32,517 nucleotides of DNA from a candidate division WOR-3 bacterium (GCA_020343595.1 CP070802.1:1044814-1077330), one strand, 5' to 3'; positions 8,980 to 32,517 are shown, counted from the stretch's first letter. Numbers and translations: made by a program. The notes: generated by a model not told the origin, from the letters alone.

Positions 8980-8981
8980 GA

Positions 8982-15237: not shown

Positions 15238-15240
15238 GGT

Positions 15241-15741: not shown

Positions 15742-16889
15742 TAAGTATCCTCCAATGCATCGGCGATCAGCGTAACCAACTGGATCGTCTTGATCTTTGC
15801 CTCTTTGCCGGTCTTTTCATCGTTCATAGCGCACTGGAAGTGTATCTCACATTTAGGACAGGAGAGAACCAGTAGATCAGCTTTGGTTTCTTTTGCCTCG
15901 GTGAGCCGGGCCCGTTGGATGCTCTTTGAATAGGTCGAACAGTTCATCCATGCGCTGACGCCACAGCATATCGCGCGCTCTCGACTCCGCGTCATTTCGT
16001 TCAAGCTCAATTCCGGGACAGCAGCAATGGCTTTCCTTGGTTCATCATAGATTCCAAGGTGCCTGCCGAGCCGGCAAGGATCCTGAAAGGTTACAACTTT
16101 TTTTAGATTCTTGAATTTCAATTTCCCGTCGGATATGGCGCCGCTGATTGTCTCGGTGATATGCTCGACATCGAAATCAGTACTGAAATACTTGGGATAA
16201 TCGATTTTGAAGGTGCGATAACCTTCCGGGCATGAGAAGACGATTTTCTTGGCACCGGATTTCTTTATCTCTTCGATGTTGTGCCGTGCAAGTTTCTCAA
16301 AATTCTCCATGTCACCGCTCCAGAGGAGGTCATGACCACAACATCTTTCCTGGGGAAGGACAACCGGCGTAATACCCAAATGATTGAGGATCTTTATACT
16401 TGATCTGGCGGCCTGAAGCGTGTTGACCTTGATGTCGCTGAACAGAATATCGAAGTAGGGCAGACAGCCGACAAAATAAAGCAACTCACCTTTCTGTGTT
16501 GTTTTCAGGTTGCTGTCAATCCAATCGAGGCGTTTTTGTTCCAGCTCAGGTGTTGTCATTATGCGCATCAACGATTGTGCTGCGCCGCCGTGGGAGCAGA
16601 GTGCTTGCTCCCCGATCTTTTTTGCTTCAAGGCGCGTCGTTAGCGTCAGGCCGATGTATTCGATCGCGGCCGGGCAACGTTCATCACATAACTTACAGGT
16701 CAGACATGCCCAAATATTCTTGTCCTTCAATAGATCGAGATCGCCGCTCCTTATTGCTTTGTTCACTAGTATTCGCGGTGAATATCCATGGTTGTACCGT
16801 GATACCGGACAGGTACCCGTGCACTTGCCGCATTCCATGCACAGATATGCTTTTGAATCCTTGATGGCTTTGGCGATCTTGCTATTCAT
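15741..16889 (-). CDS. HdrD/GlpC-like Fe-S oxidoreductase (2x[4Fe-4S] + two CCG domains)
   Basis: CMECGKCTGTCP, CLTCKLCDERCP, FVGC..CCGH..CPEG, DPC..CCG..CPKC. ATG 16889 overlaps the mvhD stop. Confidence 0.88.
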   Translation of the reverse strand: MNSKIAKAIKDSKAYLCMECGKCTGTCPVSRYNHGYSPRILVNKAIRSGDLDLLKDKNIWACLTCKLCDERCPAAIEYIGLTLTTRLEAKKIGEQALCSHGGAAQSLMRIMTTPELEQKRLDWIDSNLKTTQKGELLYFVGCLPYFDILFSDIKVNTLQAARSSIKILNHLGITPVVLPQERCCGHDLLWSGDMENFEKLARHNIEEIKKSGAKKIVFSCPEGYRTFKIDYPKYFSTDFDVEHITETISGAISDGKLKFKNLKKVVTFQDPCRLGRHLGIYDEPRKAIAAVPELSLNEMTRSRERAICCGVSAWMNCSTYSKSIQRARLTEAKETKADLLVLSCPKCEIHFQCAMNDEKTGKEAKIKTIQLVTLIADALEDT

Positions 16890-17388
16890 TTTCAATCGCT
16901 TCGCTGATGGCACCCAGCCGTTTCTTTATTGACGATGGTCCGAGCCTTCGGATCGTATCGGTGAATTCCTGGGCGACCCTTGCGAATTTGGTCGCTTCAG
17001 CCGATGATATCCAATCGAGTTTGAGACGTTCCTTCTCGATGCCGAGCATCTCGGTGAGTTTCTCGGTCACCTTGTGCACATCCGCGGCTTTTCGCGCGCC
17101 GAACATGTAGTGGCAGTCCTCAAAATGGCAGGTGGCAACAAGAACGCCGTCCGCCCCCAGTTCGAAGGCTTTCAATACAAAGGATGGCGTCACGCGCCCG
17201 CCGCACATCACCCTGACGATCTTTATGTTCGTTGGGTACTGCAACCTGGAGACCCCGGCACCGTCTGCTGCCGGGTAAGAACACCAGTTACAGCAGAAGG
17301 CAACGATCTTGGGTTCGAAGCCTTTGCTGGAGCGTCGGGTAGTTGAACGGCCGGATCGCTTCTTCGTTTTCTTAGCAGCTTGTTTCAT
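16882..17388 (-). CDS. mvhD: MvhD-like [2Fe-2S] protein with basic N-terminal extension
   Basis: FCCNWCSY, VRVMCGGRV, CHFEDCHY, WISSAE. Confidence 0.92.
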   Translation of the reverse strand: MKQAAKKTKKRSGRSTTRRSSKGFEPKIVAFCCNWCSYPAADGAGVSRLQYPTNIKIVRVMCGGRVTPSFVLKAFELGADGVLVATCHFEDCHYMFGARKAADVHKVTEKLTEMLGIEKERLKLDWISSAEATKFARVAQEFTDTIRRLGPSSIKKRLGAISEAIENE

Positions 17389-17450: not shown

Positions 17451-20400
17451 TCATCCTTCAAACAACGCCTCTAATTGAGCTTCGATCTGTTCGCTTCGGA
17501 AGTGCTTGAGGTCGATGGCGCCGGTTGGACATGCAGCGACACAAGTACCGCAACCCTTACAGAGCGCTTCATTGACGCGTGCGGCAAAACCGCCGTCTTC
17601 TTTTTCAACCAATTCTATTGCGCGGAACTCGCAGACTTCGGCACACCGGCCGCAGCCGCGGCAATACTCTTCGATCACCGTCGATGTTATCGGTGCCAGG
17701 GTGATCTTATCGCGGCTGAGCAAGGCAGCAACTTTGGATGCAACAGCAGACGCCTGGGAGATCGAATCACCGATATCCTGGGGGAACTGACAACAACCAC
17801 ACAGGAAAACGCCTTCGACCGTCGTTTCCACGGGACCAAATTTCGAGTGACGTTCCAGGAAGAATTTATCGGGACCGCGCGGAACCTTGAATAATTCGGA
17901 AAGATGGGCGGAGTCGGCGGCGGGAACCATTCCCACCGAAAGCACGACGAGGTCGACCGGAATGGTAATGTCGGCATCGATATCCGACGACGGGATGGTG
18001 ACGGCTTCTGCTCTGCCCTTGCCAGTGATTGCCGGCTCGCCTTCGTACGGCAAGAAGAGGACACCAAGTTCCCTTGCCTTGCGATACATCCGTTCGGCGC
18101 CTTTTGAATACACCCTGACGCCGCGGTTGAGAATTGCCACATCGATTCCCCTTTCCCTCAGATAGATCGCCTCCTTTATCGCTGCCTGGCAGCAATAGCG
18201 CGAACATCCAGGGTTTCCGTCGTCCCCTCGCGAACCGACACACTGGAAAAAGGCGACGGATCTTATGTTATCGATATCGCCTGAAAGTATCTTCTGTTCC
18301 AACTCCATGTTGGTTACGATATTCGGGAACTTGCCGTAGCCAAAGCACTTTTTTGGATCATAGAGTGCCGATCCAGTGGCTAGCACGATAGCGCCGACCG
18401 TATATTCATTTTCCTTTGCTTCGCGTTTCACCTTGACCTGGAAGTTGCCCACGTAACCAGTGACATCAAGGAGTTCCGTGGAAGTCAGTAGCTCACCGCC
18501 TGCTTTTGTGAATTCAGCGGTGAGTTTCTCCATGATATCCTTTCCTTTACGAAAACTTGGATAAATGCTCGATAGATGCGATACGAGGCCACCGGGAACC
18601 GGCAATTTCTCGATTACTTTGACGCTAAAGCCGCGCTGTAACAAATCGATCCCGCATCGCAGACCAGTGATGCCGGCACCGATGATGGCGACATCCCGGT
18701 TAACCGATAGTTCTTTCATGAAAAGCGGCGCCAGCTTTCGGACCCGCGCTACCGACATCCTGACCAGCTCCTTTGCCTTGTCGGTCGCCTTTACCGGTTC
18801 CTTCTGATGCACCCAGGAACATTGATTTCTGATATTCGCGATGTCAAAGAGATACGGATTGAGACCAACTGCAGTCAATGAATCCTGGAAGCTCATTTCA
18901 TGGGTCTTGGGTGTGCATGCGGCGACGACGACCCGGTTCAGTCTGTGCTCGGCGATCCTCTCCTGAATCTGATGTTGGGCTGTCTCGGAACATGCGAAGG
19001 TGTAGTCTTCTGCGAATACGACATCGGGCAGCATCTTTGCGTATTCGACCACGCCTTTGACATCAACCACCTTTGAGATGTTCGGGCCGCAGTGGCAGAC
19101 AAAGACACCGACCCTTGGTGGGCCCGACACGTCAATTTGTTCGATCTCTTTCTCCTCGATTGGAAGTTCATGCCCTTCCAGGAAACACGCCGCCTTGACC
19201 GCGGCACCACTGGCCTCGGCGATCGAATCGGTGATGTCCTTTGGTCCAGTAGCACAACCGCAGACAAGAATACCTTTCTTCGTTGATTCGAGTGGCATGA
19301 TCGCAGGCTCTGAATTCTTGAAAAAACCATCGTCATCGATCTCGATATCGAGCACTCCGGCCAGTTCTCCGCAGCCTTTCGAGGGGATCAATGCCGATGA
19401 TAGGCATACGGCATCGAACGTCATCTTTCCCGAGTGTCCTTTCTCGTCTTCGTAATGTATGATCAAATTCCCCTGGCCATCGTCAATTACCTTTGAGGGT
19501 TTGCCCTTGACATACTCCACGCCCTTCTCGAGAGAACGATTGTAGAATTCCTCAAATCCCTTGCCAAAGGCTCTGATATCAATGTAGAATACGACAATCC
19601 TGGCGTCTGGATAGTGCTCTTTCAGGACCAGGCTGTCCTTGATGGTGTTCATACAGCAAATACGGCTGCAATAGTTGATATCATGACGCATGTTACGAGA
19701 GCCGACGCACTGGATGAACGCAAAACGCAAGGGCTCCTGTAATTCCTTTCCAAGCGGGAGCTCACCGGAACTCGGGCCATCTTCGCTCATGAGCCTTTCG
19801 ATCTCAAATGAAGTATAGATATTCTTGAAGCGTTTGTATCCGTACTCACTGGCCTCCTTTGGATCGAGATAATCGACACCGGTGGTCACGATGATCGACC
19901 CTACGTCCAGATCGACAAATTCGTCGGTCATATCGTGGACAATTGCATTCGGTTCGCACACCTTCACGCATTCCATGCATTCTGAACAGCCGGCACAGCT
20001 GAGGCATCGATTCGATTCTTTCTTTGCCTGTTCTTCTGAGAATCCCTGGGCGACTTCTTCGTAACTATTCTTCGCCTTATCCACGTCCAGCATGGGCATA
20101 GCCGTTCTTTTCTCAGCCCTTATGTCCTCTGGAATTTCAATATCCTCATCCTTCACCCGATCATCTTTTTTCTTTCTGTTTTCCTTGAGATCCACGCCTC
20201 TGATGAACCGATCGATCGATTCGGCAGCTTCTTTTCCTGCAGCAATCGCCTCGATAACCGTTGCCGGACCGGTGACCGCATCACCTCCGGCAAAGATACC
20301 GGGAATGCTCGTTTGCAGCGTATCCGGGTCCACTGCGAAAGTTCCCCAACGGGTCAACTCAAAATTCTCTTCTTTGGCCAGGAATGAAATGTCGGCCGCC

Positions 20401-21848
20401 TGGCCGATCGCCATTATTACCATATCGAGGTCCATGGTGAATTCCGAGCCTTCTATAGGTATTGGTCTTCTCCGGCCCGAGGCATCAGGTTCGCCAAGCT
20501 TCATTTTGATGCATTCCATGCCCGTGACTTTGCCATCTTTGCCAAGGATCTTCGTAGGATTAGTCAGGTAATGGATCGTGATGCCCTCTTTTTCCGCTTC
20601 GACTATCTCCTCTTCATTTGCGGGCATTTCCTGGCGCGAACGTCGGTAGACAATGAACGCTTGTTCGGCGCCGAGACGTAGTGCGGTGCGCACCGCATCG
20701 ATTGCCGAATTACCACCGCCAACGACGGCCACTTTCTTACCCACCGGCGTCTGGGGATTGTGGACCGCCTTATTGAGAAATTCAACACACATAGTGACGC
20801 CCTGCAGATCTTCGCCTTCGATCCCCATCTGTTTCTCTTTGGCTGCACCAAGTCCGAGAAACACAGCCTTGTGTTCCTGCTGCAGGTCCTTGATGCTGAA
20901 ATCCTTGCCTAGGGCAGTATTGGTCTTGATCTCGACACCCCAACTCTCTATGTAATCCAGATCTCGCTGGAGGGCGGCTTCGGGCAATCTGAAGCGCGGT
21001 ATTGCCCAGTACAAAAGGCCACCGGGATGATCAGTGGCTTCGAACACGGTCGGACGATATCCTCTCCTGGCAAGAAAATACGCGGCCGACAAGCCGGCAG
21101 GACCGGCGCCGACGACGGCAACCTTTTCTTTGTTCAGTTCAGGACTGGGTGGTGGGGTTTTCTGTTCGTGATCAGAAATGAACCGTTTGAGCTGGGCAAT
21201 TGCCAGCGGTTCATCTACGTCCCTTCGTTTGCAGTCCGATTCACACGGATGGGTGCACACGCGGCCGCAGACAGCCGGGAATGGGTTATCCCGGCGTTCA
21301 AGTTCGAGCGCTTCCTGATACTTGCCCTGTGAAATTAGCGCGATATATCCCTGAGCATTGACTCCTGCCGGACATGAGTACCGACACGGTGGTGAGCCCT
21401 TTTTCTCAATCAAGAATTTGTTGGGAACGGCCTGGGGGTACTGACGATAAATTGCCGCCCGCTTTGAAAGTGCCAGTTGAAACTCATCTTTAATATGGAC
21501 CGGGCAAACCGTTGGACACTCGCCGCATCCCGTACATTTGTTCCAGTCGACAAATGTTGATTTGCGTCTGACTTTCACTTTGAAATCCGGTGCCTCACCC
21601 TCGACGCCGACAACTTCGCTGTTGGCGAATATCTCAATGTTTGGATGCCGACCGACATCCATTAGTTTGGGGCCGAGGATTCAGCCCGTACAATCCATCG
21701 AGGTGAAGATCTTATGGATCTGGGATGTTCGACCGCCCAGGCATGGGCCACGCTCGACAAGGTAAACCTTGAAACCAGCATTGGCCAAATCCAAAGCGGA
21801 CTGAACACCAGCCACGCCTCCACCAATGACGAGTGCTCCTTTTGGCAT
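17451..21848 (-). CDS. Selenocysteine-containing HdrL-type protein (HdrA module with GltD/NfnB-like insertion + second HdrA module; ~1465 aa, Sec56)
   Basis: A 55-codon in-frame segment [14 protein letters not shown]...SMDCTG precedes TGA 21681-21683, then [13 protein letters not shown] continues into the 1403-aa ORF. ATG lies 3 nt after the gamma-subunit stop. Confidence 0.92.
21642..21661 (-). promoter_or_regulatory. Putative bacterial SECIS element
   Basis: UGGAUGUC-GGUC-GGCAUCCA 8-bp stem with one U-G pair; loop 27 nt after UGA, same as in the other Sec-hdrA. Confidence 0.8.
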
Positions 21849-21851: not shown

Positions 21852-22418
21852 TTATTTATTTCCTTTGTTTGATTGCTTCTTCGCTAAGATCTCTTTTCCA
21901 TATTCATAGCCGCGCTCGAAAGCCTTCAGATTAAGCGGCAGTGCCTTTTCCGGGACCAGGCCGGGCAGGGCCTTCTTCATACTATCGTAGGTGACAAGAT
22001 TGGTTATGGCCGTAAAGAATCCGAGCATAACCACATTCGCCACAATTTTGATCCCCAGTTCCTCCGCAAATCGTGTTGCCGGTATCGCATGGGCGAGGAT
22101 CTTCCCGCGGGGCGGTTTGGGTTTAACGAGGTCCTCATCGTATAACAGCATTGCCTCTTCACCCATTTCTGATTCAAACTTATCATATCCTGCCTGGGAC
22201 ATGGCAACCAGGACATCAGAATTTGTGATGTAAGGGTACAGGACCTTGCTTTCGGATATGACGAGTTGCGAACTGCATGCACCACCACGCGCTTCCGGTC
22301 CGAATGATTGACTCATGGTTGCATACTTGCTATCAAAGATCGATGCTGCCTTACCGGCGATTATCCCGGATCTGATAATGCCCTGACCTCCGTAACCGGC
22401 GAATCTGATTTCAGCCAT
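21852..22418 (-). CDS. 2-oxoacid:ferredoxin oxidoreductase gamma subunit
   Basis: EIRFAGYGGQG, SFGPEARGGAC, ANVVMLG; GGAGG SD before ATG 22418. Confidence 0.92.
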   Translation of the reverse strand: MAEIRFAGYGGQGIIRSGIIAGKAASIFDSKYATMSQSFGPEARGGACSSQLVISESKVLYPYITNSDVLVAMSQAGYDKFESEMGEEAMLLYDEDLVKPKPPRGKILAHAIPATRFAEELGIKIVANVVMLGFFTAITNLVTYDSMKKALPGLVPEKALPLNLKAFERGYEYGKEILAKKQSNKGNK

Positions 22419-23187
22419 TTCCACCTCCCGTCTTTTCAGGGAGCGAACCATGAGGCGTGAATGCATCACCGAGTATTTTCGTGTGCTGGATATTGTATGA
22501 ATCGATGAACGTTGCTCGTTCCTTGTCGGTGAATTTTCCGACGATGATCTTCCCGTCAGCCGTTATTGCTGCGTTCCGCGGGTCCTCGTCGTTCTTCACG
22601 GTCGAATTTTCAAAGTAGAATTGAAGAAGTTCCGAATCGAGATCGGTGACGTATCGGTAATAGCTGGGACCGGGTGCCAGTATTTCGATCATGGACATCC
22701 CTCGTTTGTGCAGTGCCTCGGCGATGGATTTGGCGAGTTCGGCGGTATGCAAAGCAGTCCATCTCGCCGTGTATACTGCTCCACAGGAATTACCGAGGTG
22801 CGGGAAATTGAAGGGTTCTTCGAATGTAGAATAAGGTGAGAATGCTTCAGTTACAACTGGCACCGATTTGCCCGCGACCTTATGGTAGACAAAGCTATTG
22901 ATACAGAGCACGAGCAGTTCCATGTTTCTCCGCGTTCCATGAACAAAGTGATTTCCTCCAAGTGTCATGAGATCGCCGACGACAGGAATGATCTTCAGCT
23001 CCGGGTTACCAAGTTTCAGGCCCGATCCAAAGGCTATTGCGCGTCCGCGCGGTACCTGGAAATAATCGACACCGAGGGACTTGACCGTCTCGGGCTCAAA
23101 GGGGATATCTGATGGAATGCTGATCTTGTTCCGATCCAGGCCAGATTGCTCTATGCCTTTATTGATTGCTTCGATGATTGAATTCAT
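22411..23187 (-). CDS. Degenerate 2-oxoacid oxidoreductase beta-like subunit (no Fe-S cysteines, no intact GDG motif)
   Basis: Aligns with 24426..25304 (GRAIAF, GGNHFVH..RRN, E.PFN.P.L, GAVY.AR) but the cofactor motifs are replaced. Confidence 0.85.
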   Translation of the reverse strand: MNSIIEAINKGIEQSGLDRNKISIPSDIPFEPETVKSLGVDYFQVPRGRAIAFGSGLKLGNPELKIIPVVGDLMTLGGNHFVHGTRRNMELLVLCINSFVYHKVAGKSVPVVTEAFSPYSTFEEPFNFPHLGNSCGAVYTARWTALHTAELAKSIAEALHKRGMSMIEILAPGPSYYRYVTDLDSELLQFYFENSTVKNDEDPRNAAITADGKIIVGKFTDKERATFIDSYNIQHTKILGDAFTPHGSLPEKTGGGNG

Positions 23188-24425
23188 TCCTTTAATTTGA
23201 ACCCTCCCTCAAAGACTGATTTCTCAAGCCTGGTTTTGAATTCGTGCACGCCTTCCATTGGTTTTTCCTGGTTTACTGCGAATTCGATCGCATCAGCAAC
23301 ATCGGCTGGATTGTGAACACCGGCACCACCGTGGGGAACGAGTACAACACTGGCGTGACCGTGTGCGCAACGGGCAACGTCGTAAACGACTTGTCCGTAA
23401 TTTATCTCGGGAACGACGAAGGCTTTTGTTTTCATCGCCAGTTCGTTGATCCGGTCATCAGGAAATGGCCAGACGGTAACAAGCCGCAGCGTGCCGACTT
23501 TTATGCCTTTTTGCCGGGCCATTTCGACACCCTTTACCGCGACGCGCGACGATATCCCGTATGATACTACGATCACATCAGCACCGTCGATCCCTTCTTC
23601 CTTCAATTCGATGATCTTGTCTTTGTTGATTCTGATCTTGTCAACCAATCTCCTTATGCAAGCACTCTTGTATTTTTCATCGGCAACCGGATGGCCGTTC
23701 TCGTTGTGAACGACGCCCGTGATATACAGATTTAATCCTTCACCAGCCTTAGCCATTTTTGGCACAAGATCCGGACCGGGGCTGAAGGGTCGGTAATCTG
23801 CCGCCTTGCCAGTGAACAGCCTCCTGGGTTCAACATCGATCTTTTCGGCTTCCGGAATGACAACCTTCTCAGTCATGTGACCAACGCATTCATCCGACAT
23901 TATCATGACTGGACAGCGGTACTTCTCGGCGAGGTTGAACGCTTTGACCGTGTAGTCAAACATCTCCTGCGGCGAATCCGGTGCAATGGCGATGACCTCA
24001 TAGTCTCCGTGTGAACCCCATCTTGACTGCATCATGTCAGCCTGGCCGGTCTTGGTCGGTACACCGGTTGACGGACCGCCACGCTGGATGTTAAGCAGGA
24101 CAAAAGGTGTCTCGAGCATCGCTCCGAAGCCGATCGCATCCTGCATCAGCGAGTAGCCAGGGCCAGAGGTTATCGTCATTGTCTTGGCTCCTGACCAGGC
24201 GGCGCCAAGTATGGCCGAAATCGACCCCAATTCGTCTTCCATCTGAATGAACACGGTTCCAACTTTTGGTCCGCGGTGACACACTGCTTCAAATGCTTCG
24301 GTCGATGGCGTAATAGGATAACCGGCCACGAATTTGCATCCCGCGGCCAGGGCGCCATAACCCGCAGCAACGTCACCGTCTATGTAGTAGACACCCGTCA
24401 GCACACTCTTTGGATCAGCTTTCAC
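23184..24425 (-). CDS. 2-oxoacid:ferredoxin oxidoreductase alpha subunit (intact motifs)
   Basis: GYPITPSTE, QMEDE, TSGPG, QRGGPSTG, RWGSHGD; GTG start. Confidence 0.93.
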   Translation of the reverse strand: MKADPKSVLTGVYYIDGDVAAGYGALAAGCKFVAGYPITPSTEAFEAVCHRGPKVGTVFIQMEDELGSISAILGAAWSGAKTMTITSGPGYSLMQDAIGFGAMLETPFVLLNIQRGGPSTGVPTKTGQADMMQSRWGSHGDYEVIAIAPDSPQEMFDYTVKAFNLAEKYRCPVMIMSDECVGHMTEKVVIPEAEKIDVEPRRLFTGKAADYRPFSPGPDLVPKMAKAGEGLNLYITGVVHNENGHPVADEKYKSACIRRLVDKIRINKDKIIELKEEGIDGADVIVVSYGISSRVAVKGVEMARQKGIKVGTLRLVTVWPFPDDRINELAMKTKAFVVPEINYGQVVYDVARCAHGHASVVLVPHGGAGVHNPADVADAIEFAVNQEKPMEGVHEFKTRLEKSVFEGGFKLKE

Positions 24426-25304
24426 TTATGCTCCCTTTTTTCCTTTTGGTCTCTTGCCGGAATCCCTTACTTCAGAAAGCCATTGATTATAGCGTTCCAT
24501 GTAGGAGGGCCTTTCACGGTCAACAAACTTGCCGCAGATGATTTTGGTTTGGAATCCGATCTCCAGGTTCTTCGTGTCTTCACCGTGTCGTATTTCGACG
24601 TTATCGTGATAGAACTTCATCATCTCAAGGCCGTCGCCGAGTCGGTTGATCCGGGAGTAGTACATGCCACATGGCGAGATGACTTCAACGACGGAGAACC
24701 CCTTCTTATTCAATGCTTCGGTCAGGGCATTTGTCAATCTGCGAATATGCAATGCCGTGTATCTTGCCACGTATACCGCGCCGGACGAATCCGCCAGATA
24801 GGGAATGTTGAACGGTGGTTCAACACAACCGTACGGTGAGGTCGTAGCATATGCTGCCAGGGGAGTGGTCGGCGCCACCTGCCCGCCGGTCATTGCATAG
24901 ATGAAGTTATTGACGCAGACGACCAGCATGTCGATATTGCGCCGTGCCGCATGAATGAAATGATTTCCGCCGATGGCGATCAGATCACCGTCACCCGAGA
25001 ATACAACGACTTTCGTCTTTGGGCTTGCGACTTTGATACCGGTGGCAAAAGCGATCGGCCGACCGTGTGTCGTGTGGAAGGAGTCGACCTTTACATAACC
25101 GGCAACTCTGCCGGTGCAGCCAATGCCTGAAACAATACTCACATTGTTGGGATCGATATTTGCCTTTTCGAGCGCAGAAGCGAAAGCGGTAACGGCCAGA
25201 CCGATCCCGCAAGTCGGGCACCAGATATGAGGCATCCGATCCATGCGGAGCAGATTTTCCATGGGATGTATTTCACTATTTGTATTGATTCTCTGGGTTG
25301 CCAT
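24426..25304 (-). CDS. 2-oxoacid:ferredoxin oxidoreductase beta subunit (intact motifs)
   Basis: WCPTCG, SGIGC, HTTHGR, GDGD...NNFIYAMTGGQ, SPC; TAATG coupling to the upstream alpha'. Confidence 0.93.
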   Translation of the reverse strand: MATQRINTNSEIHPMENLLRMDRMPHIWCPTCGIGLAVTAFASALEKANIDPNNVSIVSGIGCTGRVAGYVKVDSFHTTHGRPIAFATGIKVASPKTKVVVFSGDGDLIAIGGNHFIHAARRNIDMLVVCVNNFIYAMTGGQVAPTTPLAAYATTSPYGCVEPPFNIPYLADSSGAVYVARYTALHIRRLTNALTEALNKKGFSVVEVISPCGMYYSRINRLGDGLEMMKFYHDNVEIRHGEDTKNLEIGFQTKIICGKFVDRERPSYMERYNQWLSEVRDSGKRPKGKKGA

Positions 25305-26509
25305 TATGTACTCCCTTTCTTCCACTCAATGATACCACATTTTGTTTCGGTCATCAGAGATGCCTTTTCTGCTGCGGCGAGGATATCATCGGTGTATTCG
25401 ACACCGTTGTCGCCGTGATGCAAGAATAATACGTTTGCCTTTCCATAGGTATTCCGTTCAACTTCCTGAACGATCTGCCCGAAATTCATCTCAGGAACCA
25501 CAAATGCCTTCACCTGTTCTGCGAGTTCAGACACCCTCGCGTCCGGGAAAGGCCAAACCGTATTCAGTTTCAGGCTGCCGATCTTCATACCCTTAGCGCG
25601 CGCCTGTTCAACTGCCTTGAGCGCAGCCCTCGAAGACGATCCGTATGAGATTATCACTACTTCCGCGTCATCTGTTTTCGTTTCCTGGATGTCGACTATC
25701 TCATCCACATAATCGCGTATCTTCTTTACGAGTGGATGGACATTATACTCCTGGCATTCTTCAAACATGATCGGATAACCCCGGTCGTCATGGGTCAGGC
25801 CGGTGACATGAAAGCGGTAGCCCTGTCCGATATCGACCATTCGCGGGACAAAATCCTTATCCCTCTTGAATGGCAGATAACTGTCGCGCGGCCCATCAAA
25901 GTACCGGCGTGGTTCGATATGAATCTGGTCGGCAGAAGGAATGACAACTGATTCTTTCAGTTGAGCGATATGAGCGTCTGACATCAGGGCGACGGGAACA
26001 CGGTATCGTTCCGAGAGATTAAAGGCTTTGATCGTGAAATCGAACATCTCCTGGGCCGAGCTGGGAGCGTACGCGATTATCTCGTAATCGCCATGAGATC
26101 CCCAACGGGACTGCATGACGTCAGCCTGTGCCGGGTGTGTCGGCAGGCCGAGGCCCGGTCCGACCATCTGGACTTCCACTATTACACATGGCGTTTCAAG
26201 CATGACACCGAGTCCTAGATGTTCCATCATTAGTGAGAACCCCGGGCCTGAAGTTACGGTCATTGATTTCTTACCGGTCCAGGACGCGCCGAGAACCGCA
26301 GCGAGGGCAGAGACTTCGTCTTCCATCTGGATGAAAGTCGCGCCAACCTCAGGCGCTCGCTGTAGAAATCTTTGCGAGACCTCCAATGAAGGCATGATGG
26401 GGTAGAGGCCCAAGAAACGACAGCCGGCTGCTAATGCTCCTTCCGCGCATGCCTCATTGCCGCTGAGAATGTGAGAGCCGGTTAACACCCCGGTCTTATC
26501 TGATTTCAT
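25304..26509 (-). CDS. 2-oxoacid oxidoreductase alpha-like subunit with altered substrate-binding residues
   Basis: GNEA, QMEDE, TSGPG and RWGSHGD retained; YPIMPSLE replaces YPITPSTE and QMVGPGLG replaces QRGGPSTG. Confidence 0.88.
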   Translation of the reverse strand: MKSDKTGVLTGSHILSGNEACAEGALAAGCRFLGLYPIMPSLEVSQRFLQRAPEVGATFIQMEDEVSALAAVLGASWTGKKSMTVTSGPGFSLMMEHLGLGVMLETPCVIVEVQMVGPGLGLPTHPAQADVMQSRWGSHGDYEIIAYAPSSAQEMFDFTIKAFNLSERYRVPVALMSDAHIAQLKESVVIPSADQIHIEPRRYFDGPRDSYLPFKRDKDFVPRMVDIGQGYRFHVTGLTHDDRGYPIMFEECQEYNVHPLVKKIRDYVDEIVDIQETKTDDAEVVIISYGSSSRAALKAVEQARAKGMKIGSLKLNTVWPFPDARVSELAEQVKAFVVPEMNFGQIVQEVERNTYGKANVLFLHHGDNGVEYTDDILAAAEKASLMTETKCGIIEWKKGST

Positions 26510-26598
26510 CTAGCTCCTTTCTAACTCCACTTTTCATCCTCTGTATACTGGGAAAGGGTTGTTCAGGGACCAATAATATTCTCGATAGAAATGCGCCT

Positions 26599-28254
26599 TT
26601 AGAATACGTCTATCATTCTGGCTAGTGCAGCCTTGCCTCGATAGTCCGGTAAAATGATCGGTGCTCTCCTCGTACACTTCACTCCCGCCTGTTCAAGATT
26701 CTTAACGTATCTCTTCACGTGATCCAGTGCTATCTTGTTTTCACCCTTGTGCGCTTTCACGTACTCCGCAGTGCTCATTCCGGCACGCCGTCCGAAGACA
26801 AGGCAGTCGAGGGTAGAATTTCCCATCAAGCGGTTCTTGCCGTGCACCCCTCCTGACACTTCACCGGCTACCCATAATCCATCGACATTTGTCCTTCCTG
26901 CTGGGTCCGTTTCAATACCGCCATTTTGATAATGGAGGGTCGGGAAAACCAGTACCGGGTCCTTTCGTATGTCGATATCATACCGCTTGTACATCCTGAT
27001 CATTCCCGGGAATGCTTTCTCTATATAACCTTTGCCGTTCTTGATCTCGATCAAGGGTGTATCGAGCCAGACCCCGCGGAGCCCGGTTGGTGTGACGATG
27101 CCCTTATTGCGGACATAGCATTCTCTGATGATCGCCGATGCCTCGACGTCTCTCGGCTCCAGCGGGTAAACGAATGCTTCACCGTCTGCGTTCACCGGCT
27201 GCGCGCCGCTGCCCCGTAGTTTCTCGGTGAGCAGATAACCAACGATCTGGATCGGGTAGGCGGCTCCGGTTGGATGGTATTGCACAGCATCGATATCACG
27301 TAGTTTGGCCCCCACTCGGTATGCGAGCACGACGCCATCAAAGGTCGCGCCGTAGTGATTGGTCGTGGGAAATCCTCTTATGTGTAATCTTCCATAACCG
27401 CCGGTGGCGATGATCGTCGCCTTGGCTCTGACGATCTTATACTCACCGGTTTCGAGATTCCACAAAACCGCGCCGGTCACACGGTCGCCATCGGTTAAAA
27501 GTTCGATCGCGGGATAATGTTCCAGATAGGGAATTTCACGAGTCCTGAACTCATCTCTCAGTACCCTGAATTCTTCAAGTCCCGTGTAGTCACGGCACGA
27601 ATGCATACGCTTCACTGATAGCCCGCCCGCGAGTTTTTCCGCAAGGTCGCCACCTTCTTCACGGTCGAAGATCGCACCCAACTCACAGAGCCATTTCATG
27701 ATCAGCGGGGCATCTTCCACTAATGCTCTGGCGACGTCTGGCTTGTTCTCAAAATGACCTCCACCGATCGTATCGATGTAGTGTTTCATGACCGAGTCGA
27801 CTTCACGATCGGCCGCTTGTGTGCCACCTTCGGCCATTATCGAATTGGCATCACCGTGCCTCAATTTATTAGTCAACAATATTCGTTCGGTAGCAATACC
27901 GCTGTCATTTGCCCACAAAGCCGCAGAGGTACCAGCAAGGCCGCCGCCGATGATCAGTATGTCGGTGTCGTAATCGACCTGGGAGATATTCACCTCGTCC
28001 TGTTCGATCAGTGGGTATGCCTCGAGAAGATCGGCAACTTCGTTCGGTGCAAGGTTACCTTTGTTGGGTCCGACCTGAAGTTCGCGCTTACCGCCAGGAG
28101 CATAATCCGGGTGGATCCGGAGGACTTCGTCCCGTTCTTTCATCGTCATGGCGGGTGGTGTGTAGTTGATTCTCTTCTCACGTGTTTTGGTGACCTTGTC
28201 GATCTCTTTTCTGATATTCTCAGGGTAACCTTCAATGTATTTTAGTTCTGCCAT
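26599..28254 (-). CDS. Fumarate reductase/succinate dehydrogenase-family flavoprotein (TfrA/NadB-like, non-covalent FAD)
   Basis: IIGGGLAG, SIMAEGG, ATGGYG, QYHPTG, TEKLRG, PRD, HYQNGG, HGKNRLMGNS. Confidence 0.88.
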   Translation of the reverse strand: MAELKYIEGYPENIRKEIDKVTKTREKRINYTPPAMTMKERDEVLRIHPDYAPGGKRELQVGPNKGNLAPNEVADLLEAYPLIEQDEVNISQVDYDTDILIIGGGLAGTSAALWANDSGIATERILLTNKLRHGDANSIMAEGGTQAADREVDSVMKHYIDTIGGGHFENKPDVARALVEDAPLIMKWLCELGAIFDREEGGDLAEKLAGGLSVKRMHSCRDYTGLEEFRVLRDEFRTREIPYLEHYPAIELLTDGDRVTGAVLWNLETGEYKIVRAKATIIATGGYGRLHIRGFPTTNHYGATFDGVVLAYRVGAKLRDIDAVQYHPTGAAYPIQIVGYLLTEKLRGSGAQPVNADGEAFVYPLEPRDVEASAIIRECYVRNKGIVTPTGLRGVWLDTPLIEIKNGKGYIEKAFPGMIRMYKRYDIDIRKDPVLVFPTLHYQNGGIETDPAGRTNVDGLWVAGEVSGGVHGKNRLMGNSTLDCLVFGRRAGMSTAEYVKAHKGENKIALDHVKRYVKNLEQAGVKCTRRAPIILPDYRGKAALARMIDVF

Positions 28255-28268
28255 TACTCACTCCTTCC

Positions 28269-29027
28269 TTATTCCGGCTCTTTTTCGCGTTCGGTGTATA
28301 TCTTTCGAAGTTCTTCGGTCGAGCAACTGACAAGCTTGTTCATTTCGTCGGTGAATTTTCCTTCGGTGATTTCCTTTACCCTCTTTCTGAGGTGGTCCGG
28401 TACACCCAGGCCATAGCGCCCGAACATCCTTCTGCCGAGCTGGGCAACATGGTATTGTACGATCTCAGCAGGGCATCTCATGGCACAGAGGCCGCACTGA
28501 ATGCAGTCAAAAGAGATGTCTGACAGCCCGTCAAAATCACCGCGTATCGCAGCCTGTACGTAATCCATGACTTCAAGATCTTGCGGGCAAGCCTTCGTGC
28601 AAGTGTTGCATGATACGCATCTTGTCACTTCCGGATAATACCTGATGAAGACCGATGCTTCGTAAGGTTCCTTTGTAACGTCATAGATCGCTTTTTCAGC
28701 AGGAGTGAAAGGTATTTGGACCAGATACATTCCATCTTCGGCCCGGGTCTGGCATGCCATACCGGTCTGCAACTTGTAATCACCTTTCTTTCTGAAAACA
28801 GTAGCGCAGGCACCACAGAATCCTTGCCGACAGCCGACACCGCGCACAAACTTGTAGCCGGCGTACTCCATTGCCGTCAGTATTGTGAGGTCTGCCGGGA
28901 CCTTGTAGGCTTTTCCCATGATGTGAATCGTGATCCAGTTTTCTATGTCCTTCGCGTCGATTCCTGTCGTTGCTGCCTTATTCGCTTCTGCGATTCTGTC
29001 CATGATTGGGCTTTTATTGTCTTCCAT
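28269..29027 (-). CDS. SdhB/FrdB-like iron-sulfur protein ([2Fe-2S] + 2x[4Fe-4S])
   Basis: GCRQGFCGAC...ACQT, CVSCNTCTKACP, CIQCGLCAMRCP. Confidence 0.85.
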   Translation of the reverse strand: MEDNKSPIMDRIAEANKAATTGIDAKDIENWITIHIMGKAYKVPADLTILTAMEYAGYKFVRGVGCRQGFCGACATVFRKKGDYKLQTGMACQTRAEDGMYLVQIPFTPAEKAIYDVTKEPYEASVFIRYYPEVTRCVSCNTCTKACPQDLEVMDYVQAAIRGDFDGLSDISFDCIQCGLCAMRCPAEIVQYHVAQLGRRMFGRYGLGVPDHLRKRVKEITEGKFTDEMNKLVSCSTEELRKIYTEREKEPE

Positions 29028-29038
29028 TATTTACTCTC

Positions 29039-29986
29039 CTAATCTTCGATCAACGATTTGCTCTTCAGCAACGGCCTCGGATCGACGTAATTCTGCTCAA
29101 ATCCAAAGACATCCTTGTCCATGCCGAATGCGATCGTCATCAATTGAGTAATGTAGAATACCGGCATTTCTTCAAAATCAGGGTGCTTTTCCTTTACGGC
29201 CTGCTGACGCTGGTCCAGATTGAAAGCACACAGCGGACAGACCGTTGTCAATGCCTCTGCGCCCTTTTTGCGTGCATGCGATAGTATGTCATATGCTAAT
29301 TCAGCGACAATATATTTGTCTTTGACGGTCTGATAACTGCCGCAGCAAACTTTCTTGTATGGCGTGTCAATGACCGATACGCCGAGAGCTTCGAGAATAT
29401 CTTTCTGTATCGTCGGATCTTCGGGATCATCGATCGCGATCTCCTTAGGCCGCAGGATCATACAGCCGTAATACGGGGCGATATTCAGATCCTTCAGCGG
29501 TTTGGTTACCTTCTCGCGAATCTTCTCATAGCCCAGTGATTTCAATAACTCCAGGAAGTGTAGTACCTCGACATTGCCCTTGTAGTCTTCCTCCCGGTAC
29601 ATGAGTTCGTTGATCTTTTGCAGATCTTCAGCATTCTCCTTCATCCGCCGATTTGTGCTCTTCAGAGTATTGAAACACATTGAGCATAGAGTCACCAAGC
29701 GATTCTCATTCTTGACCAGCCCGTAATCATTCATTTCCTGAACCCGGATGAAATTCCGTACGGAAGCCACGTGATGGATCAGGTCATCTTGAGCAAGCGA
29801 GAAGACCGTGCCGCAGCAATTCCATCGGGGGATCTCGAGCAATTCTACACCGAGCGCGCGCGCCGTAGCGATCGCTGAGTTTTCAAAATTCTTGGCCGTC
29901 GTCTTCAACGTGCATCCCGGGTAATAGGGGAATTTCATATTGCCGGAGGATGTTGATTTTGTTTCTTTAGTATTGGTCGGATTCAT
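29039..29986 (-). CDS. hdrB: Heterodisulfide reductase subunit B
   Basis: YYPGC..WNCCG..CSMC and YYGC..CCG..CPLC; AGGAGG SD. Confidence 0.92.
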   Translation of the reverse strand: MNPTNTKETKSTSSGNMKFPYYPGCTLKTTAKNFENSAIATARALGVELLEIPRWNCCGTVFSLAQDDLIHHVASVRNFIRVQEMNDYGLVKNENRLVTLCSMCFNTLKSTNRRMKENAEDLQKINELMYREEDYKGNVEVLHFLELLKSLGYEKIREKVTKPLKDLNIAPYYGCMILRPKEIAIDDPEDPTIQKDILEALGVSVIDTPYKKVCCGSYQTVKDKYIVAELAYDILSHARKKGAEALTTVCPLCAFNLDQRQQAVKEKHPDFEEMPVFYITQLMTIAFGMDKDVFGFEQNYVDPRPLLKSKSLIED

Positions 29987-30404: not shown

Positions 30405-30835
30405 GCCTCCTTGGCGGCTGCCTGTGTTTTCAATTCGAGTGGTCCCAATGCAGACATTTCGTCTATGAATTCGTTGACGACCTTCTGAAATTTACCGCCT
30501 TCGTTAGCCGAGATCCATTCCAGCCGTACACGTTGAGGAGCGATACCGAGTTCTTTCAGCAGGTTCTTGAGTAGTGCGATCCTTTTATGAGTACGGTAGT
30601 TTCCTGATACATAATGGCAGTCACCCGGATGACAACCAGCCACCAATACACCCCAGGCGCCTTTTTTCAAGGCATCAAGTATCAGCTCCGGGTCTATCCG
30701 GCTTGAACACATTGCTCGGACAATTCTGAAATGCGGTTTCATTTGGAGCCTCGAAGTACCGGCCGCGTCGGCTCCAGCATAGGAACACCAATTACAGCAG
30801 AATGCAATTATTTTGGGGACGGCGTTACTCTTCAT
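30401..30835 (-). CDS. mvhD: MvhD-like [2Fe-2S] protein
   Basis: FCCNWCSYAGAD, MCSSR, GCHPGDCHY, WISANEG; ATGA overlaps at both ends. Confidence 0.93.
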   Translation of the reverse strand: MKSNAVPKIIAFCCNWCSYAGADAAGTSRLQMKPHFRIVRAMCSSRIDPELILDALKKGAWGVLVAGCHPGDCHYVSGNYRTHKRIALLKNLLKELGIAPQRVRLEWISANEGGKFQKVVNEFIDEMSALGPLELKTQAAAKEA

Positions 30836-32517
30836 TTTTCCTCCTCTCCTAATGCTGCGCCAACCATGGCCTTTAACTGTCTATTCATGAACCAATGCTG
30901 CTGTGAGGCTCCAGAAGGACATGCTGCTGAACACGAGCCGCAACCCTGACAGAGAATTTCGTTCACCTTGGCGACCCTCTTGTCATCCTCGAGTTCGGTC
31001 TTTACGGCGTCATACGGGCAGACACTGACACACGTTGCACAGCCGCTACAGAGGTCTTCATCGACCACAGCGGTGATCGGTTCTACCGCGTACACTCCTC
31101 GGTTCATCAAACGTATTGCCCTTGAGGCAGCGGCACTCGCTTGTGCTACCGTGTCAGGTATGTCCTTGGGTCCCTGGGCGCAACCACATATGAACACGCC
31201 GTCGGTTAGGGTGTCTACCGGTTTGAACTTCGGATGTGCTTCCTGGAGAAAACCGCCCGGACTGCGCGTCATTCTGAGCACATCGGCGATCTTGCGAGTT
31301 CCTTCTCCAGGTTGCATACCGACCGATAACACGACCAGGTCGAATTCTGATTCAATTATCTGGCGTGCTAGCGTATCCTCGACTTTTAGCATGACTTTCT
31401 TGGTATCGGGGTCTTCGATCACTTCTGCGACCCTTCCGCGAATGAACTTGACACCGGTCCTTTGTGCCCTTTTGTAGTATTCTTCAAAGCCTTTACCGTA
31501 CGCCCGGAGATCGGTATAGAAGACATAGACGTCCTTTTTAGGATCGGCTCGCTTCAAGAGCTGCGACAGCTTCGTTGCATACATGCAGCAAATTCTTGAA
31601 CAATATTCATTACCGATCTGCTCGTCCCGAGAACCGACACATTGGATGAAGGCTATCCTTTTCCCGATTTTTCTTGTCGGCCGACCTTCAGCATCGTGGA
31701 CTATCATGCGTTCCATTTCCAGGGACGTTATGACGTTTTCGTTCGTACCGAAGCCGTATACTTTTTTCTCGCGGGCATCAAAGATATCGTAGCCGGACGC
31801 AACGATTATGGTATCGACCTTGATCTCTACTTTCTCGGGTTTCTGCTCAAAATCCACGGCGTCGTGCGGGCAGACTTTCTTGCAATTACCACACTTTCCT
31901 TTCTGGAAGTATATGCAGTTTGGTTCGTCGATTAGGTATTTATACGGGACGGCAAACTCAAAGGGAACATATATCGCCCGGCGGGTTGTCAGTCCCTGTT
32001 CGAATTCATTGGGCAATTTCACGGGGCACTTTTCTTCGCAGATACCGCATGAGACACAATTATCATTGACATATCTGGGTCTTTTGTTAACGGTCACCTC
32101 GAAATTGCCGAGAAAGCCAGAGATCTTCTCCACTTCCGAATTGGTGAACAGAGTGATGTTGGGATGACCCGGGACATCAGCCATCTTTGGAGAGAGAATA
32201 CAGGCTGCGCAATCTTCGGTCGGAAAGGTTCTTGACAGCTTTGCCATCTTTCCGCCGATCGTTGGTTCCTTCTCGACAAGAAAGACCTCGAAACCGGCAT
32301 CACCGAGATCAAGAGCCGCCTGGATGCCGGCAATGCCAGCGCCGACAACGAGTACTCGTTTACCGATGGGCATGGTCTTTCTTTCGAGGGATTCATCGAG
32401 TTTCGCCTTCGCGATGGCGATGTTCACCAGATCCTTTGCCTTTTGGGTTGCCAGTTCTGGTTGGTCATAGTGCGGCCAAGAGCACTGTTCGCGGATGTTT
32501 GCCATCTCGAATACGTA
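30832..32517 (-). CDS. hdrA: Heterodisulfide reductase subunit A, Cys-type, 5'-truncated by window edge
   Basis: Frame open to the window end; NIREQCSW, GAGIAG, TFPTEDCAACILSPKM, QCVGSR..YCSRICC, ferredoxin motifs. Confidence 0.93.
   Translation of the reverse strand, partial: YVFEMANIREQCSWPHYDQPELATQKAKDLVNIAIAKAKLDESLERKTMPIGKRVLVVGAGIAGIQAALDLGDAGFEVFLVEKEPTIGGKMAKLSRTFPTEDCAACILSPKMADVPGHPNITLFTNSEVEKISGFLGNFEVTVNKRPRYVNDNCVSCGICEEKCPVKLPNEFEQGLTTRRAIYVPFEFAVPYKYLIDEPNCIYFQKGKCGNCKKVCPHDAVDFEQKPEKVEIKVDTIIVASGYDIFDAREKKVYGFGTNENVITSLEMERMIVHDAEGRPTRKIGKRIAFIQCVGSRDEQIGNEYCSRICCMYATKLSQLLKRADPKKDVYVFYTDLRAYGKGFEEYYKRAQRTGVKFIRGRVAEVIEDPDTKKVMLKVEDTLARQIIESEFDLVVLSVGMQPGEGTRKIADVLRMTRSPGGFLQEAHPKFKPVDTLTDGVFICGCAQGPKDIPDTVAQASAAASRAIRLMNRGVYAVEPITAVVDEDLCSGCATCVSVCPYDAVKTELEDDKRVAKVNEILCQGCGSCSAACPSGASQQHWFMNRQLKAMVGAALGEEEK

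Follow-up and report, generated by a model that had tools for sequence, protein, structure and literature searches.

The window analysed here, a 32,517-nucleotide stretch from a candidate division WOR-3 bacterium (GCA_020343595.1, CP070802.1:1044814-1077330), carries on its minus strand a five-gene operon of 2-oxoacid:ferredoxin oxidoreductase (OFOR) subunits in the order alpha'-beta-alpha-beta'-gamma, in which the stop and start codons of adjacent genes overlap or abut. The features discussed below, in positions of the window, are:

26599..29986, minus strand: upstream context, with an HdrB-like CCG protein, an Fe-S protein and a TfrA-like fumarate-reductase flavoprotein
25304..26509, minus strand: alpha', degenerate OFOR alpha, 401 aa (Pfam POR_N and PFOR_II)
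25745..25834, minus strand: alpha' trans loop, residues 226-255 (GYRFHVTGLTHDDRGYPIMFEECQE), containing L238
24426..25325, minus strand: beta, catalytic OFOR beta (Pfam TPP_enzyme_C, 112 bits)
23184..24425, minus strand: alpha, catalytic OFOR alpha, 413 aa, with YPITP (T39), E65, R115 and T120 (POR_N and PFOR_II)
23661..23750, minus strand: alpha residues 226-255, a relaxed version of the trans loop
22411..23187, minus strand: beta', degenerate OFOR beta, 258 aa (Pfam TPP_enzyme_C, only 45 bits)
22450..22479, minus strand: beta' C-terminal tail ILGDAFTPHG, the retained ancestral arm
21852..22418, minus strand: gamma, OFOR gamma, single copy, 188 aa, POR domain (domain III; PF01558, 110 bits)
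17451..21848, minus strand: downstream context, an HdrA/GltD-like fusion with an in-frame TGA at codon 56

The four junctions read TAATG (alpha'/beta), TAA followed directly by GTG (beta/alpha), ATGA (alpha/beta') and ATGGCTGA (beta'/gamma), and a Shine-Dalgarno-like GGAG or GGGAG lies upstream at every one of them. For beta, a start at ATG 25304 (292 aa) is more likely than one at GTG 25325 (299 aa); gamma starts at ATG 22418, which overlaps the beta' stop, and not at GTG 22469. Both degenerate genes are thus intact open reading frames with overlapping or abutting codons at all junctions, in agreement with the original prediction that they are uninterrupted and translationally coupled. An ungapped alignment of alpha and alpha' over 397 aa shows 50% identity, and the two score 500 and 499 bits, respectively, against NF006412 (cut-off 411); beta and beta' share 37% identity. 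DNA reads from four runs yielded short low-depth contigs that match parts of the window exactly or with scattered substitutions.

The lesions in beta' that had been noticed in the window are all present. The protein begins at the position aligned with residue 41 of beta and lacks the WCPTCG segment, SGIGC has become SDIPF, HTTHGR QVPRGR, SPC APG and NNFIYAMTGGQ NSFVYHKVAGK, and a two-residue deletion in GDGD leaves VVGDL. Neither the four [4Fe-4S] cysteines nor an intact TPP/Mg motif is found in any of 46 beta' sequences, and because all 46 lack the cysteines and carry the same two-residue deletion, these losses are family-wide and not due to chance. By contrast, the cluster ligands C36, C39, C70 and C219 and the TPP/Mg motif G111-D112-G113 plus N140 of beta are invariant in 35/35 orthologues, and the four cysteines and GDG are kept in all eight beta subunits of three-gene (alpha-beta-gamma) relatives. 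The Mg-ligand Asn (N140) persists in 40/46 beta' sequences (Ser in that of the window), H87 is replaced by Arg in 46/46, R73 mostly by Glu or Asp and M145 mostly by Lys, and SDIPF, RGR and APGPNYY are conserved signature residues of beta'. The cofactor-binding segments of beta', all of them, are the parts least similar to three-gene beta. The best fold matches of an AF2 model of beta' are OFOR beta chains (the monomer model was good in one of five models only, 80.5 versus 52-60, and was used solely for the fold). Since the cysteine ligands are absent, beta' by itself fails as a catalytic beta subunit, though its fold is still that of an OFOR beta. Annotation pipelines nonetheless call it '2-oxoacid:ferredoxin oxidoreductase subunit beta' or 'thiamine pyrophosphate-dependent enzyme', and kor gene counts therefore overstate catalytic capacity in such genomes. 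Other degenerate beta-like families include P0129, P0131, P0134, P0138 and P0143.

In alpha', YPITP has become YPIMP and QRGGP has become QMVGP (M39 and M115 in the window). The Thr and Arg concerned had been taken as the 2-oxoacid carboxylate binders, which they are in StOFOR of Sulfolobus tokodaii (T256a and R344a, adjoined by T349a; PMC5020499). By alignment, these three residues correspond to T39, R115 and T120 of alpha, which are invariant in 36/36 orthologues. Among 29 alpha' sequences, position 39 is V14, M7, P2, K1, E2, I1 and Q2 and never Thr, and position 115 is R15, M7, S5, G1 and H1. Of the 32 columns that are invariant in alpha and variable in alpha', 10 fall in segments 35-46 and 115-127, versus 2.0 expected. 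The decay is partial, as R115 survives in 15/29 alpha' and N140 in most beta', and this counts against a reading with one live site. So does the retention in alpha' of E65, within a preserved QMEDE motif that is accompanied by the GPG motif: E65 corresponds to StOFOR E294a, the Glu that activates TPP (PMC5020499), and the proposed cis partner beta' has no TPP site. The same retained motifs, along with N140 and the conserved charged replacements at H87, R73 and M145 of beta', would suit a dead site turned into an allosteric or regulatory ligand site within a heterotetramer of the two pairs. We regard this as improbable, in that the alpha' pocket varies freely (seven residues at position 39, five at 115), unlike a conserved ligand site, and the beta' cofactor-binding segments have diverged the most.

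Both primed genes are conserved in relatives, as the original prediction required of genes with a function. The order alpha'-beta-alpha-beta'-gamma recurs, with intact frames, in 26/26 related loci with five complete genes and in all related loci for which enough DNA was available, and no other order was seen among the 51 related loci fetched. A beta'-type gene occurs in 37/272 genomes of the window's phylum, two of the matches (G132 and G250) having stop codons inside beta', and in 2/87 genomes of a second phylum; on one near-identical contig (L049), alpha and beta' are both broken into frameshifted pieces, which we read as assembly errors. Median dN/dS was 0.12 for alpha', 0.10 for beta, 0.08 for alpha, 0.09 for beta' and 0.08 for gamma, computed from the 12 of 66 pairs with dS<3 in all five genes (most pairs are saturated, and one of the 12, L002/L003, is nearly identical and hence noisy). 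Purifying selection on the primed genes, at a dN/dS of ~0.1, is thus as strong as on the catalytic genes. Loss of catalytic and cofactor residues under purifying selection is one mark of a pseudoenzyme partner in an obligate heteromer with its active paralogue, and the primed genes display both. That they are neutral relics heading for loss, as the missing catalytic residues and the existence of three-gene relatives might suggest, has next to no probability in the face of this selection, the intact frames and a single origin of each primed clade older than the split of at least two phyla. Decaying pseudogenes were likewise ruled out by the intact genes, the kept order and the purifying selection.

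Phylogenetic trees (quick method, SH-aLRT support only) placed alpha and alpha' in one clade each (support 99 each), as sisters (91) beside three-gene alpha; beta (99) and beta' (100) also form one clade each, and the tree does not resolve whether these two are sisters. These sequence comparisons give each primed clade one origin, earlier than the divergence of at least two phyla. Two genomes of the same genus (G147 and G151) encode a three-gene alpha-beta-gamma enzyme behind the same HdrB/FeS/TfrA genes, so that the primed pair is not indispensable to the lineage, a point against the one-live-site reading.

A point that the original prediction did not contain is that retention in the two pairs is reciprocal. 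In StOFOR, Asp468a' is contributed by one protomer to the pocket of the other and is required for 2-oxoglutarate turnover (PMC5020499). This StOFOR1 residue corresponds to position 238 of the window's alpha subunits, which is L238 in alpha'. L238 and T239 do not vary among 29/29 alpha' sequences and match the three-gene form, whereas position 238 of alpha is L18, R7, H4, Q2, S2, V2 and A1 in 36 orthologues. Just 7 of 397 columns are invariant in alpha' and variable in alpha, and L238 and T239 are two of them. Similarly, a C-terminal tail, (V/I)LGDK(F/Y).PYG, is common to three-gene beta and beta', where its G and F are invariant, and is replaced in beta. Alpha has thus kept the cis substrate residues, alpha' the trans loop and beta' the ancestral arm, a pattern consistent with an (alpha-beta)(alpha'-beta') heterotetramer whose one active site is a composite.

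Structure prediction, run on the two alpha and two beta chains, agreed with the asymmetric placement. The truncated chains (domain I plus most of domain VI, with shallow alignments of 22-24 rows) scored 0.77, compared to 0.54 for the best of three controls; the mark passed here is reached by 58/80 solved complexes and by 2/110 mismatched pairs. The four-chain runs agreed in at least 92% of contacts, with a partner pLDDT of at least 76. In the predicted complex, beta' contacts cis-site residues of alpha' (36-37, 39, 60-61, 63-64, 89 and 119-120) and the trans loop of alpha (226-238), and beta' meets beta through the equivalent GGNHF helices. The model thus sets alpha' in cis with beta' and lets residues 226-238 of alpha reach beta' in trans. 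The four-chain prediction may owe its pass, and its assignment of the paralogues to their places, to memory of solved symmetric OFOR complexes. Modelled as a monomer, alpha' came out with low confidence (mean pLDDT 64.9, domain I mostly <50), and that model was set aside.

Gene order counts against cis pairing of alpha with beta, as alpha' adjoins beta and alpha adjoins beta', and adjacency alone suggests crosswise pairing. Such alpha'+beta and alpha+beta' pairs, or two enzymes sharing one gamma, would have a single TPP site with an altered substrate pocket, in keeping with the translational coupling of alpha' to beta and of alpha to beta' and with the TPP-activating Glu kept in alpha'. We hold this to be very unlikely: a new substrate pocket should be conserved, and positions 39, 115 and 120 vary in alpha' and are invariant in alpha; StOFOR single mutants without the Thr or the Arg are inactive or nearly so (PMC5020499); the model places alpha' residues 36-39, 60-64, 89 and 119-120 on beta', not on beta; and beta', devoid of cluster and GDG motif, cannot form a second enzyme.

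On the strength of these findings, we favour with reasonable confidence the reading that the five genes specify one OFOR, (alpha-beta)(alpha'-beta') plus gamma, with one live site, its assembly and stoichiometry, down to the number of gamma subunits, being those we infer. The asymmetric enzyme of one active and one pseudoenzyme protomer put forward originally is supported by three lines of evidence: the cis positions relaxed in alpha' and invariant in alpha, the reciprocal retention and the predicted complex. The alpha-beta half alone would bind TPP/Mg, the [4Fe-4S] cluster and the substrate, and one active site would be enough for catalysis. The alpha'-beta' half would be catalytically dead yet obligatory, because an active site in an OFOR draws on both halves of the dimer: the alpha' trans loop (L238/T239) would line the live pocket and the beta' C-terminal arm would lie over the live protomer. 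Of the two roles suggested for the primed protomer, scaffold would stand but fall short, as it probably also gives residues to the live site, and the freely varying alpha' pocket argues against a regulatory one. The arrangement would have arisen when the alpha-beta pair of a three-gene enzyme was duplicated in tandem and the copies then underwent complementary losses. The substrate would probably be 2-oxoglutarate. Leu at the trans position, found here in alpha', is given as a trait of 2-oxoglutarate-specific KorAB (PMC5020499), and the context is TCA-like; against the 2-oxoglutarate family equivalogs, both subunits stay below the cut-offs, beta with 249 bits (cut-off 364, NF007207) and alpha with 341 (cut-off 579, NF007206).

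The neighbouring genes raise another reading. The HdrB-like/FeS/TfrA-like trio precedes the five-gene loci L004, L009, L015 and L016 and the three-gene loci L052 and L053, and the HdrA/GltD-like fusion, whose in-frame TGA is a probable selenocysteine codon, begins 4 nt past the gamma stop, with MvhD and HdrBC genes also downstream in the window. An alpha'-beta' pair with its own strongly conserved signature residues (SDIPF, RGR, APGPNYY), embedded among TfrA/HdrB and Sec-HdrA/MvhD/HdrBC genes, could be a separate non-catalytic particle beside a normal (alpha-beta-gamma)2 enzyme, for example an adaptor docking OFOR or ferredoxin to a neighbouring Hdr/Tfr-type complex, and Kor-Hdr-Flx-Tfr clusters are known from elsewhere (PMC11636981). 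This is unlikely, as it leaves unexplained both why the trans loop is retained in alpha' and drifts in alpha and why the C-terminal arm survives in beta' and is gone from beta. Moreover, alpha-beta homodimers would require alpha's own trans loop, and the model sets beta' against beta at a two-fold-type helix pair. As an extension of the single-site OFOR that we favour, there is a small chance that beta', having lost the Cys loop (the ferredoxin-docking site in StOFOR), has gained a new conserved surface that anchors the enzyme directly to Sec-HdrA/Tfr-type bifurcating machinery. Were this so, channelling would take the place of free ferredoxin for the electrons that leave 2-oxoglutarate on oxidation or are used to make it, and the enzyme would prove, as an experiment of nature, that OFOR/TPP catalysis can do without a second active site in communication with the first.

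The usual view of TPP enzymes, OFORs among them, is that of symmetric dimers. Work cited by PMC5020499 proposes that the two cofactors communicate (alternating-sites or half-of-the-sites reactivity), and a conserved OFOR that naturally has a single TPP/[4Fe-4S] site would open this question to a direct test, as turnover per site, with the symmetric three-gene enzyme that occupies this locus in members of the genus as a built-in control. It would also illustrate cleanly how tandem duplicates can degenerate in complementary ways, a different half of a shared active site surviving in each paralogue. Our literature search, conducted largely outside subscription journals, returned no published description of an OFOR with a degenerate second alpha/beta pair.

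Several known systems invite comparison. Pyrococcus POR/VOR gene clusters hold two complete catalytic alpha/beta(/delta) sets with one shared gamma; here the second set is without cluster ligands, GDG, Thr and Arg. The five-subunit For-type OGOR of Hydrogenobacter has single alpha, beta and gamma subunits plus a delta ferredoxin and a small epsilon, whereas this operon has two alphas, two betas, one gamma and no small ferredoxin gene. Similar in surroundings is the Kor-Hdr-Flx(-TfrAB) cluster of Ca. Endoriftia persephone, in which OGOR lies among HdrA, HdrBC and thiol:fumarate-reductase-type genes and for which a role in coupling flavin-based electron bifurcation with the (r)TCA cycle has been proposed; it differs in its four-subunit KorABCD, and the accessible part of the source describes no degenerate alpha/beta pair (PMC11636981). 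Helicobacter pylori OorDABC (PDB 8YS5/8YS6; PMC12307629) is the best solved match of beta (OorB, 8ys5_C; E 1e-58) and the second-best of alpha (E 1.5e-73), and shares an Arg at the beta position of StOFOR K49b and a Leu at the trans position; it differs in its delta ferredoxin subunit OorD and in having one kind of alpha, one kind of beta and no known degenerate pair. StOFOR1/2 (PDB 5B46-5B48, PMC5020499) share domains I, II and VI (and III), a single proximal [4Fe-4S] cluster without ferredoxin domain or delta subunit, and the YPITP Thr, Arg, Glu, GDG/Asn and CxxC ligands of alpha and beta; as in the enzyme proposed here, a residue of the other protomer completes the active site and the C-terminal arm lies over the other protomer. 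By contrast, StOFOR1/2 are symmetric (ab)2 enzymes with two equal sites, whereas here gamma is a separate gene and the second pair has diverged, without cluster, GDG, Thr and Arg. Finally, the three-gene OFOR of the same genus or phylum (L052, L053, L055 and L057), whose alpha shares 57-63% identity with alpha and alpha' alike and whose beta shares 66-71% with beta, has every motif that is partitioned among alpha, alpha' and beta', but in a single alpha and a single beta, and is presumably symmetric with two live sites.

ORF calling revealed that the minus strand from 26509 to 21852 is filled by five same-strand genes, which encode intact OFOR alpha and beta subunits, a catalytically degenerate paralogue of each (alpha' and beta') and a single gamma subunit, in this order:

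alpha', minus strand, 401 aa
beta, minus strand, 299 aa from GTG 25325 (292 aa from ATG 25304 is more likely)
alpha, minus strand, 413 aa
beta', minus strand, 258 aa
gamma, minus strand, 188 aa, start ATG 22418

Pfam assigns POR_N and PFOR_II to both alpha and alpha', a POR domain to gamma, and TPP_enzyme_C to beta (112 bits) and beta' (45 bits). Both alphas (500 and 499 bits) lie above the cut-off (411 bits) of NCBIfam NF006412, '2-oxoacid:acceptor oxidoreductase subunit alpha', and no NCBIfam equivalog cut-off is reached by beta or beta'. Alpha and alpha' align without gaps at 50% identity, beta and beta' at 37%. The internal junctions are, in order, TAATG, TAA-GTG, ATGA and ATGGCTGA, and a GGAG-type ribosome-binding site precedes each of the four. 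Every motif change that the original prediction had read in alpha' and beta', including the loss from beta' of the cluster cysteines and the TPP/Mg motif, was present when sequences and alignments were checked.

To assign roles to these residues, we mapped them by phmmer alignments to 5b48 onto the two-subunit OFOR of Sulfolobus tokodaii (StOFOR, PDB 5B46-5B48; a and b denote the subunits and a' the a subunit of the other protomer). As described in the parts of the StOFOR study that deal with the active site (PMC5020499), Mg-TPP is bound by GDG 89-91b and Asn118b, Glu294a contacts N1' of TPP, and the substrate carboxylate is held by Arg344a and by Thr256a of the YPITP motif, and single mutations of these two residues abolish activity or slow the enzyme markedly. 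The CxGC loop provides ligands of the proximal cluster and faces ferredoxin; the pocket is lined by Asp468a' from the other protomer, with D468A losing 2-oxoglutarate activity and the 2-oxoglutarate-specific KorAB having Leu at this position; and the C-terminal part of domain VI reaches over the other protomer (PMC5020499).

Residue correspondence between StOFOR and the five-gene OFOR
T256a: alpha T39
E294a: alpha E65
R344a: alpha R115
T349a: alpha T120
D468a': position 238
K49b: beta R73
GDG 89-91b: beta G111-D112-G113
N118b: beta N140
L123b: beta M145

Alpha residues T39, R115 and T120, which belong to the site built in cis with the subunit's own beta, are invariant (36/36 sequences), and the alpha' counterparts vary at positions 39 (V14 M7 P2 K1 E2 I1 Q2), 115 (R15 M7 S5 G1 H1) and 120 (L18 I6 T4 E1; numbers are sequences). 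Altogether 32 columns are invariant in alpha and variable in alpha', 10 of them within residues 35-46 and 115-127 versus 2.0 expected (hypergeometric p ~4e-6, indicative only, as these segments were picked around published residues). Reciprocally, only 7 of 397 columns are invariant in alpha' and variable in alpha, and two of these, L238 and T239 (p ~8e-4 for a three-column target), coincide exactly with the trans-acting Asp468a' and the residue next to it.

Comparison with the plain alpha-beta-gamma OFOR of relatives (the three-gene form) revealed the same division. Three-gene alphas carry the motifs YPITPSTE, QRGGPSTG and RFHVTGLTHDERGYPVMN..CQE. The first two are retained in alpha and lost from alpha'; the third reads LYITG[LRHQSVA].H in alpha and is nearly unchanged in alpha'. 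In 15-residue windows, alpha' is nearer to the three-gene form than alpha only at ~226-255 (0.71 vs 0.53; 0.60 vs 0.42), and alpha is nearer at 31-45, 121-135, 181-195, 286-300 and 361-375. The three-gene majority residue occupies 24 of 31 columns of the alpha-invariant class and five of the seven of the alpha'-invariant class. The stretches in which alpha' departs most from the three-gene form are 181-195 and 361-375, and alpha' might therefore have given up binding of gamma or CoA. Similarly, the beta' segments least like three-gene beta are all its cofactor-binding segments, and beta' retains the three-gene C-terminal tail (V/I)LGDK(F/Y).PYG; the tail of beta is Lys-rich and unrelated.

The simplest reading of this retention pattern is one composite live site plus one dead site. 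The live site would combine the cis residues of alpha, the TPP, Mg and cluster ligands of beta and the trans loop of alpha', with the arm of beta' draped over it, and the dead site would comprise alpha' (in cis), beta' and the relaxed loop of alpha. The original prediction of an asymmetric OFOR with one active and one pseudoenzyme protomer is thus supported by the retention pattern and by a four-chain structure prediction, and would be refined to a composite site. Some observations stand against the composite site: alpha' has QMEDE including the TPP-activating Glu, whose role may be structural or inter-site, and decay is incomplete, with Arg115 remaining in about half of the alpha' and Asn140 in most beta' sequences.

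Gene adjacency would favour a crosswise pairing, that is, alpha' with beta and alpha with beta'. The four-chain prediction bears on this pairing; it used cut chains (alpha 12-262, beta 20-280, alpha' 12-262 and beta' 1-235), a separate alignment of 22-24 rows for each chain, and beta' as the scored partner. The score was 0.77 versus 0.54 for the best of three controls and passed a mark reached by 58/80 solved complexes and 2/110 mismatched pairs, counts that are only rough here; at least 92% of contacts agreed between runs and partner pLDDT was at least 76. Since like complexes have already been solved, this pass may reflect memory of solved structures. More informative is the predicted interface, in which beta' touches alpha' at cis active-site elements (36-37, 39, 60-61, 63-64, 89 and 119-120) and alpha at the trans loop (226-238) and a surface at ~53-100, and the equivalent GGNHF helices of beta (117-129) and beta' (74-88) meet as across a two-fold axis. 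The predicted interface has the StOFOR geometry, with beta' placed cis to alpha' and against the trans loop of alpha, as the composite site would have it. For beta' as a monomer, the best of five models had a pLDDT of 80.5 (the others 52-60), and its best folds were OFOR beta chains, 5b46_B (E 1.5e-13) followed by 6n2n_B and 8ys5_C.

We also asked whether the primed genes are conserved. A word-seeded search returned 320 beta' relatives, the best 120 of which are 218-274 aa long and 61-96% identical, with source names WOR-3, Stahlbacteria and KSB1; in a 50%-identity library the beta' family is one representative (440 bits), the next match scoring 211 bits. Among 14 genome and 37 metagenome loci, the order alpha'-beta-alpha-beta'-gamma was found in all 26 with five complete genes (23 distinct by beta' sequence); the other 25 are partial or run off a contig end, and none has a different order. 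The operon of locus L040 is intact except for an insertion between alpha and beta' (1953-2937), which contains a HicA/HicB-like toxin-antitoxin pair together with an ORF of 139 aa, and in L031, L033 and L042 ~0.5 kb separates beta' from gamma, with a 117-aa ORF in the L031 spacer. In L049, 97-99% identical to the window, alpha and beta' are each in three frameshifted pieces, which suggests an error of assembly or sequencing, as the catalytic alpha gene is affected too. Median dN/dS (Nei-Gojobori; window plus 11 loci, 12 of 66 pairs with dS <3 in all five genes) was 0.12 for alpha', 0.10 for beta, 0.08 for alpha, 0.09 for beta' and 0.08 for gamma. Moreover, the four Cys are absent and an identical two-residue deletion in GDG is present in 46/46 beta' sequences examined, four of them divergent members only ~50% identical to the window's beta'. 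These purifying-range medians, the shared lesions and the fixed order bear out the original view that the primed genes are not decaying pseudogenes.

Of 272 species genomes of the phylum to which the window belongs, 37 gave a beta'-type match scoring at least 266 bits; in every genome that has both, this match and the canonical beta match lie ~2 kb apart. In two of the 37 (G132, G250) stops interrupt the beta'-type match. In the window's genus, 7 of 10 other genomes have the beta'-type gene and G147, G151 and G155 have canonical beta only. In G147 (locus L052) and G151 (L053), plain alpha-beta-gamma follows HdrB-like, FeS and TfrA-like genes that share 68-82% identity with their window counterparts; the G155 contig ends within alpha. 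One locus (window 21852-29986) in one genus thus holds either a five-gene or a three-gene OFOR behind these genes, and L052 and L053 form with the window a natural pair for comparing the two. Such three-gene relatives show that the five-gene arrangement is not indispensable. The operon also occurs in a second phylum, where two larger genomes (G274, G275; loci L011, L012; 4.4-5.7 Mb) out of 87 carry it, a distribution suggestive of either lateral transfer or retention in a patchy manner. In quick maximum-likelihood trees, alpha and alpha' (20 rows each) each form one clade (SH-aLRT 99) and are united (SH-aLRT 91) beside three-gene alphas; beta (99) and beta' (100) likewise form one clade each, with stems of 0.21 and 0.79 changes per site, respectively, and the quick tree gave no settled branching order among beta, beta' and three-gene betas. 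Six POR_N matches in genome G000 imply that, apart from alpha and alpha', it encodes three or more other OFOR-type alpha subunits.

The surroundings of the operon include:

1582-3105, aromatic amino-acid lyase
7492-8979, aldehyde dehydrogenase
8970-10394, class III aminotransferase
11712-14147, minus strand, HdrA-like, in-frame TGA at the asterisk in YPTMDCAI*ILGPKM, reading through into an MvhD/FlpD domain
17451-21848, minus strand, HdrA/GltD-like fusion, ~1465 aa, in-frame TGA, start 4 nt past the gamma stop

The in-frame TGAs of both HdrA-like genes, located in one common conserved motif, probably encode selenocysteine. A dense Hdr-type redox set (MvhD/FlpD, HdrBC-like fusion, HdrC-like, HdrB-like) occupies 11712-17388 and 30832-32517, and a further HdrA-like gene lies at the window end. 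The probable substrate is 2-oxoglutarate, as H. pylori OOR ranks first among solved relatives, Leu stands at the trans position as it does in KorAB, and a TfrA-like fumarate reductase belongs to the gene context.

GDG is also missing from further full-length OFOR beta-like representatives (P0129, P0131, P0134, P0138/P0271, P0143, P0205, P0228, P0246 and P0263), some of which lack the Cys ligands as well. Among them are proteins of cultured Fervidibacter sacchari (Armatimonadota; P0138/P0271) and a Planctomycetota MAG (P0143). Degenerate OFOR beta paralogues may thus have arisen independently more than once. The parts are ordinary OFOR parts, and we could not find their arrangement described: our literature searches returned nothing relevant. 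In source annotations beta' appears as a beta subunit or TPP enzyme, and a WOR-3 genome paper, in the section concerned, treats these genes simply as korABCD (PMC12542636). The Hdr/Tfr context of the window is similar to the Kor-Hdr-Flx-Tfr cluster described for Ca. Endoriftia (PMC11636981).
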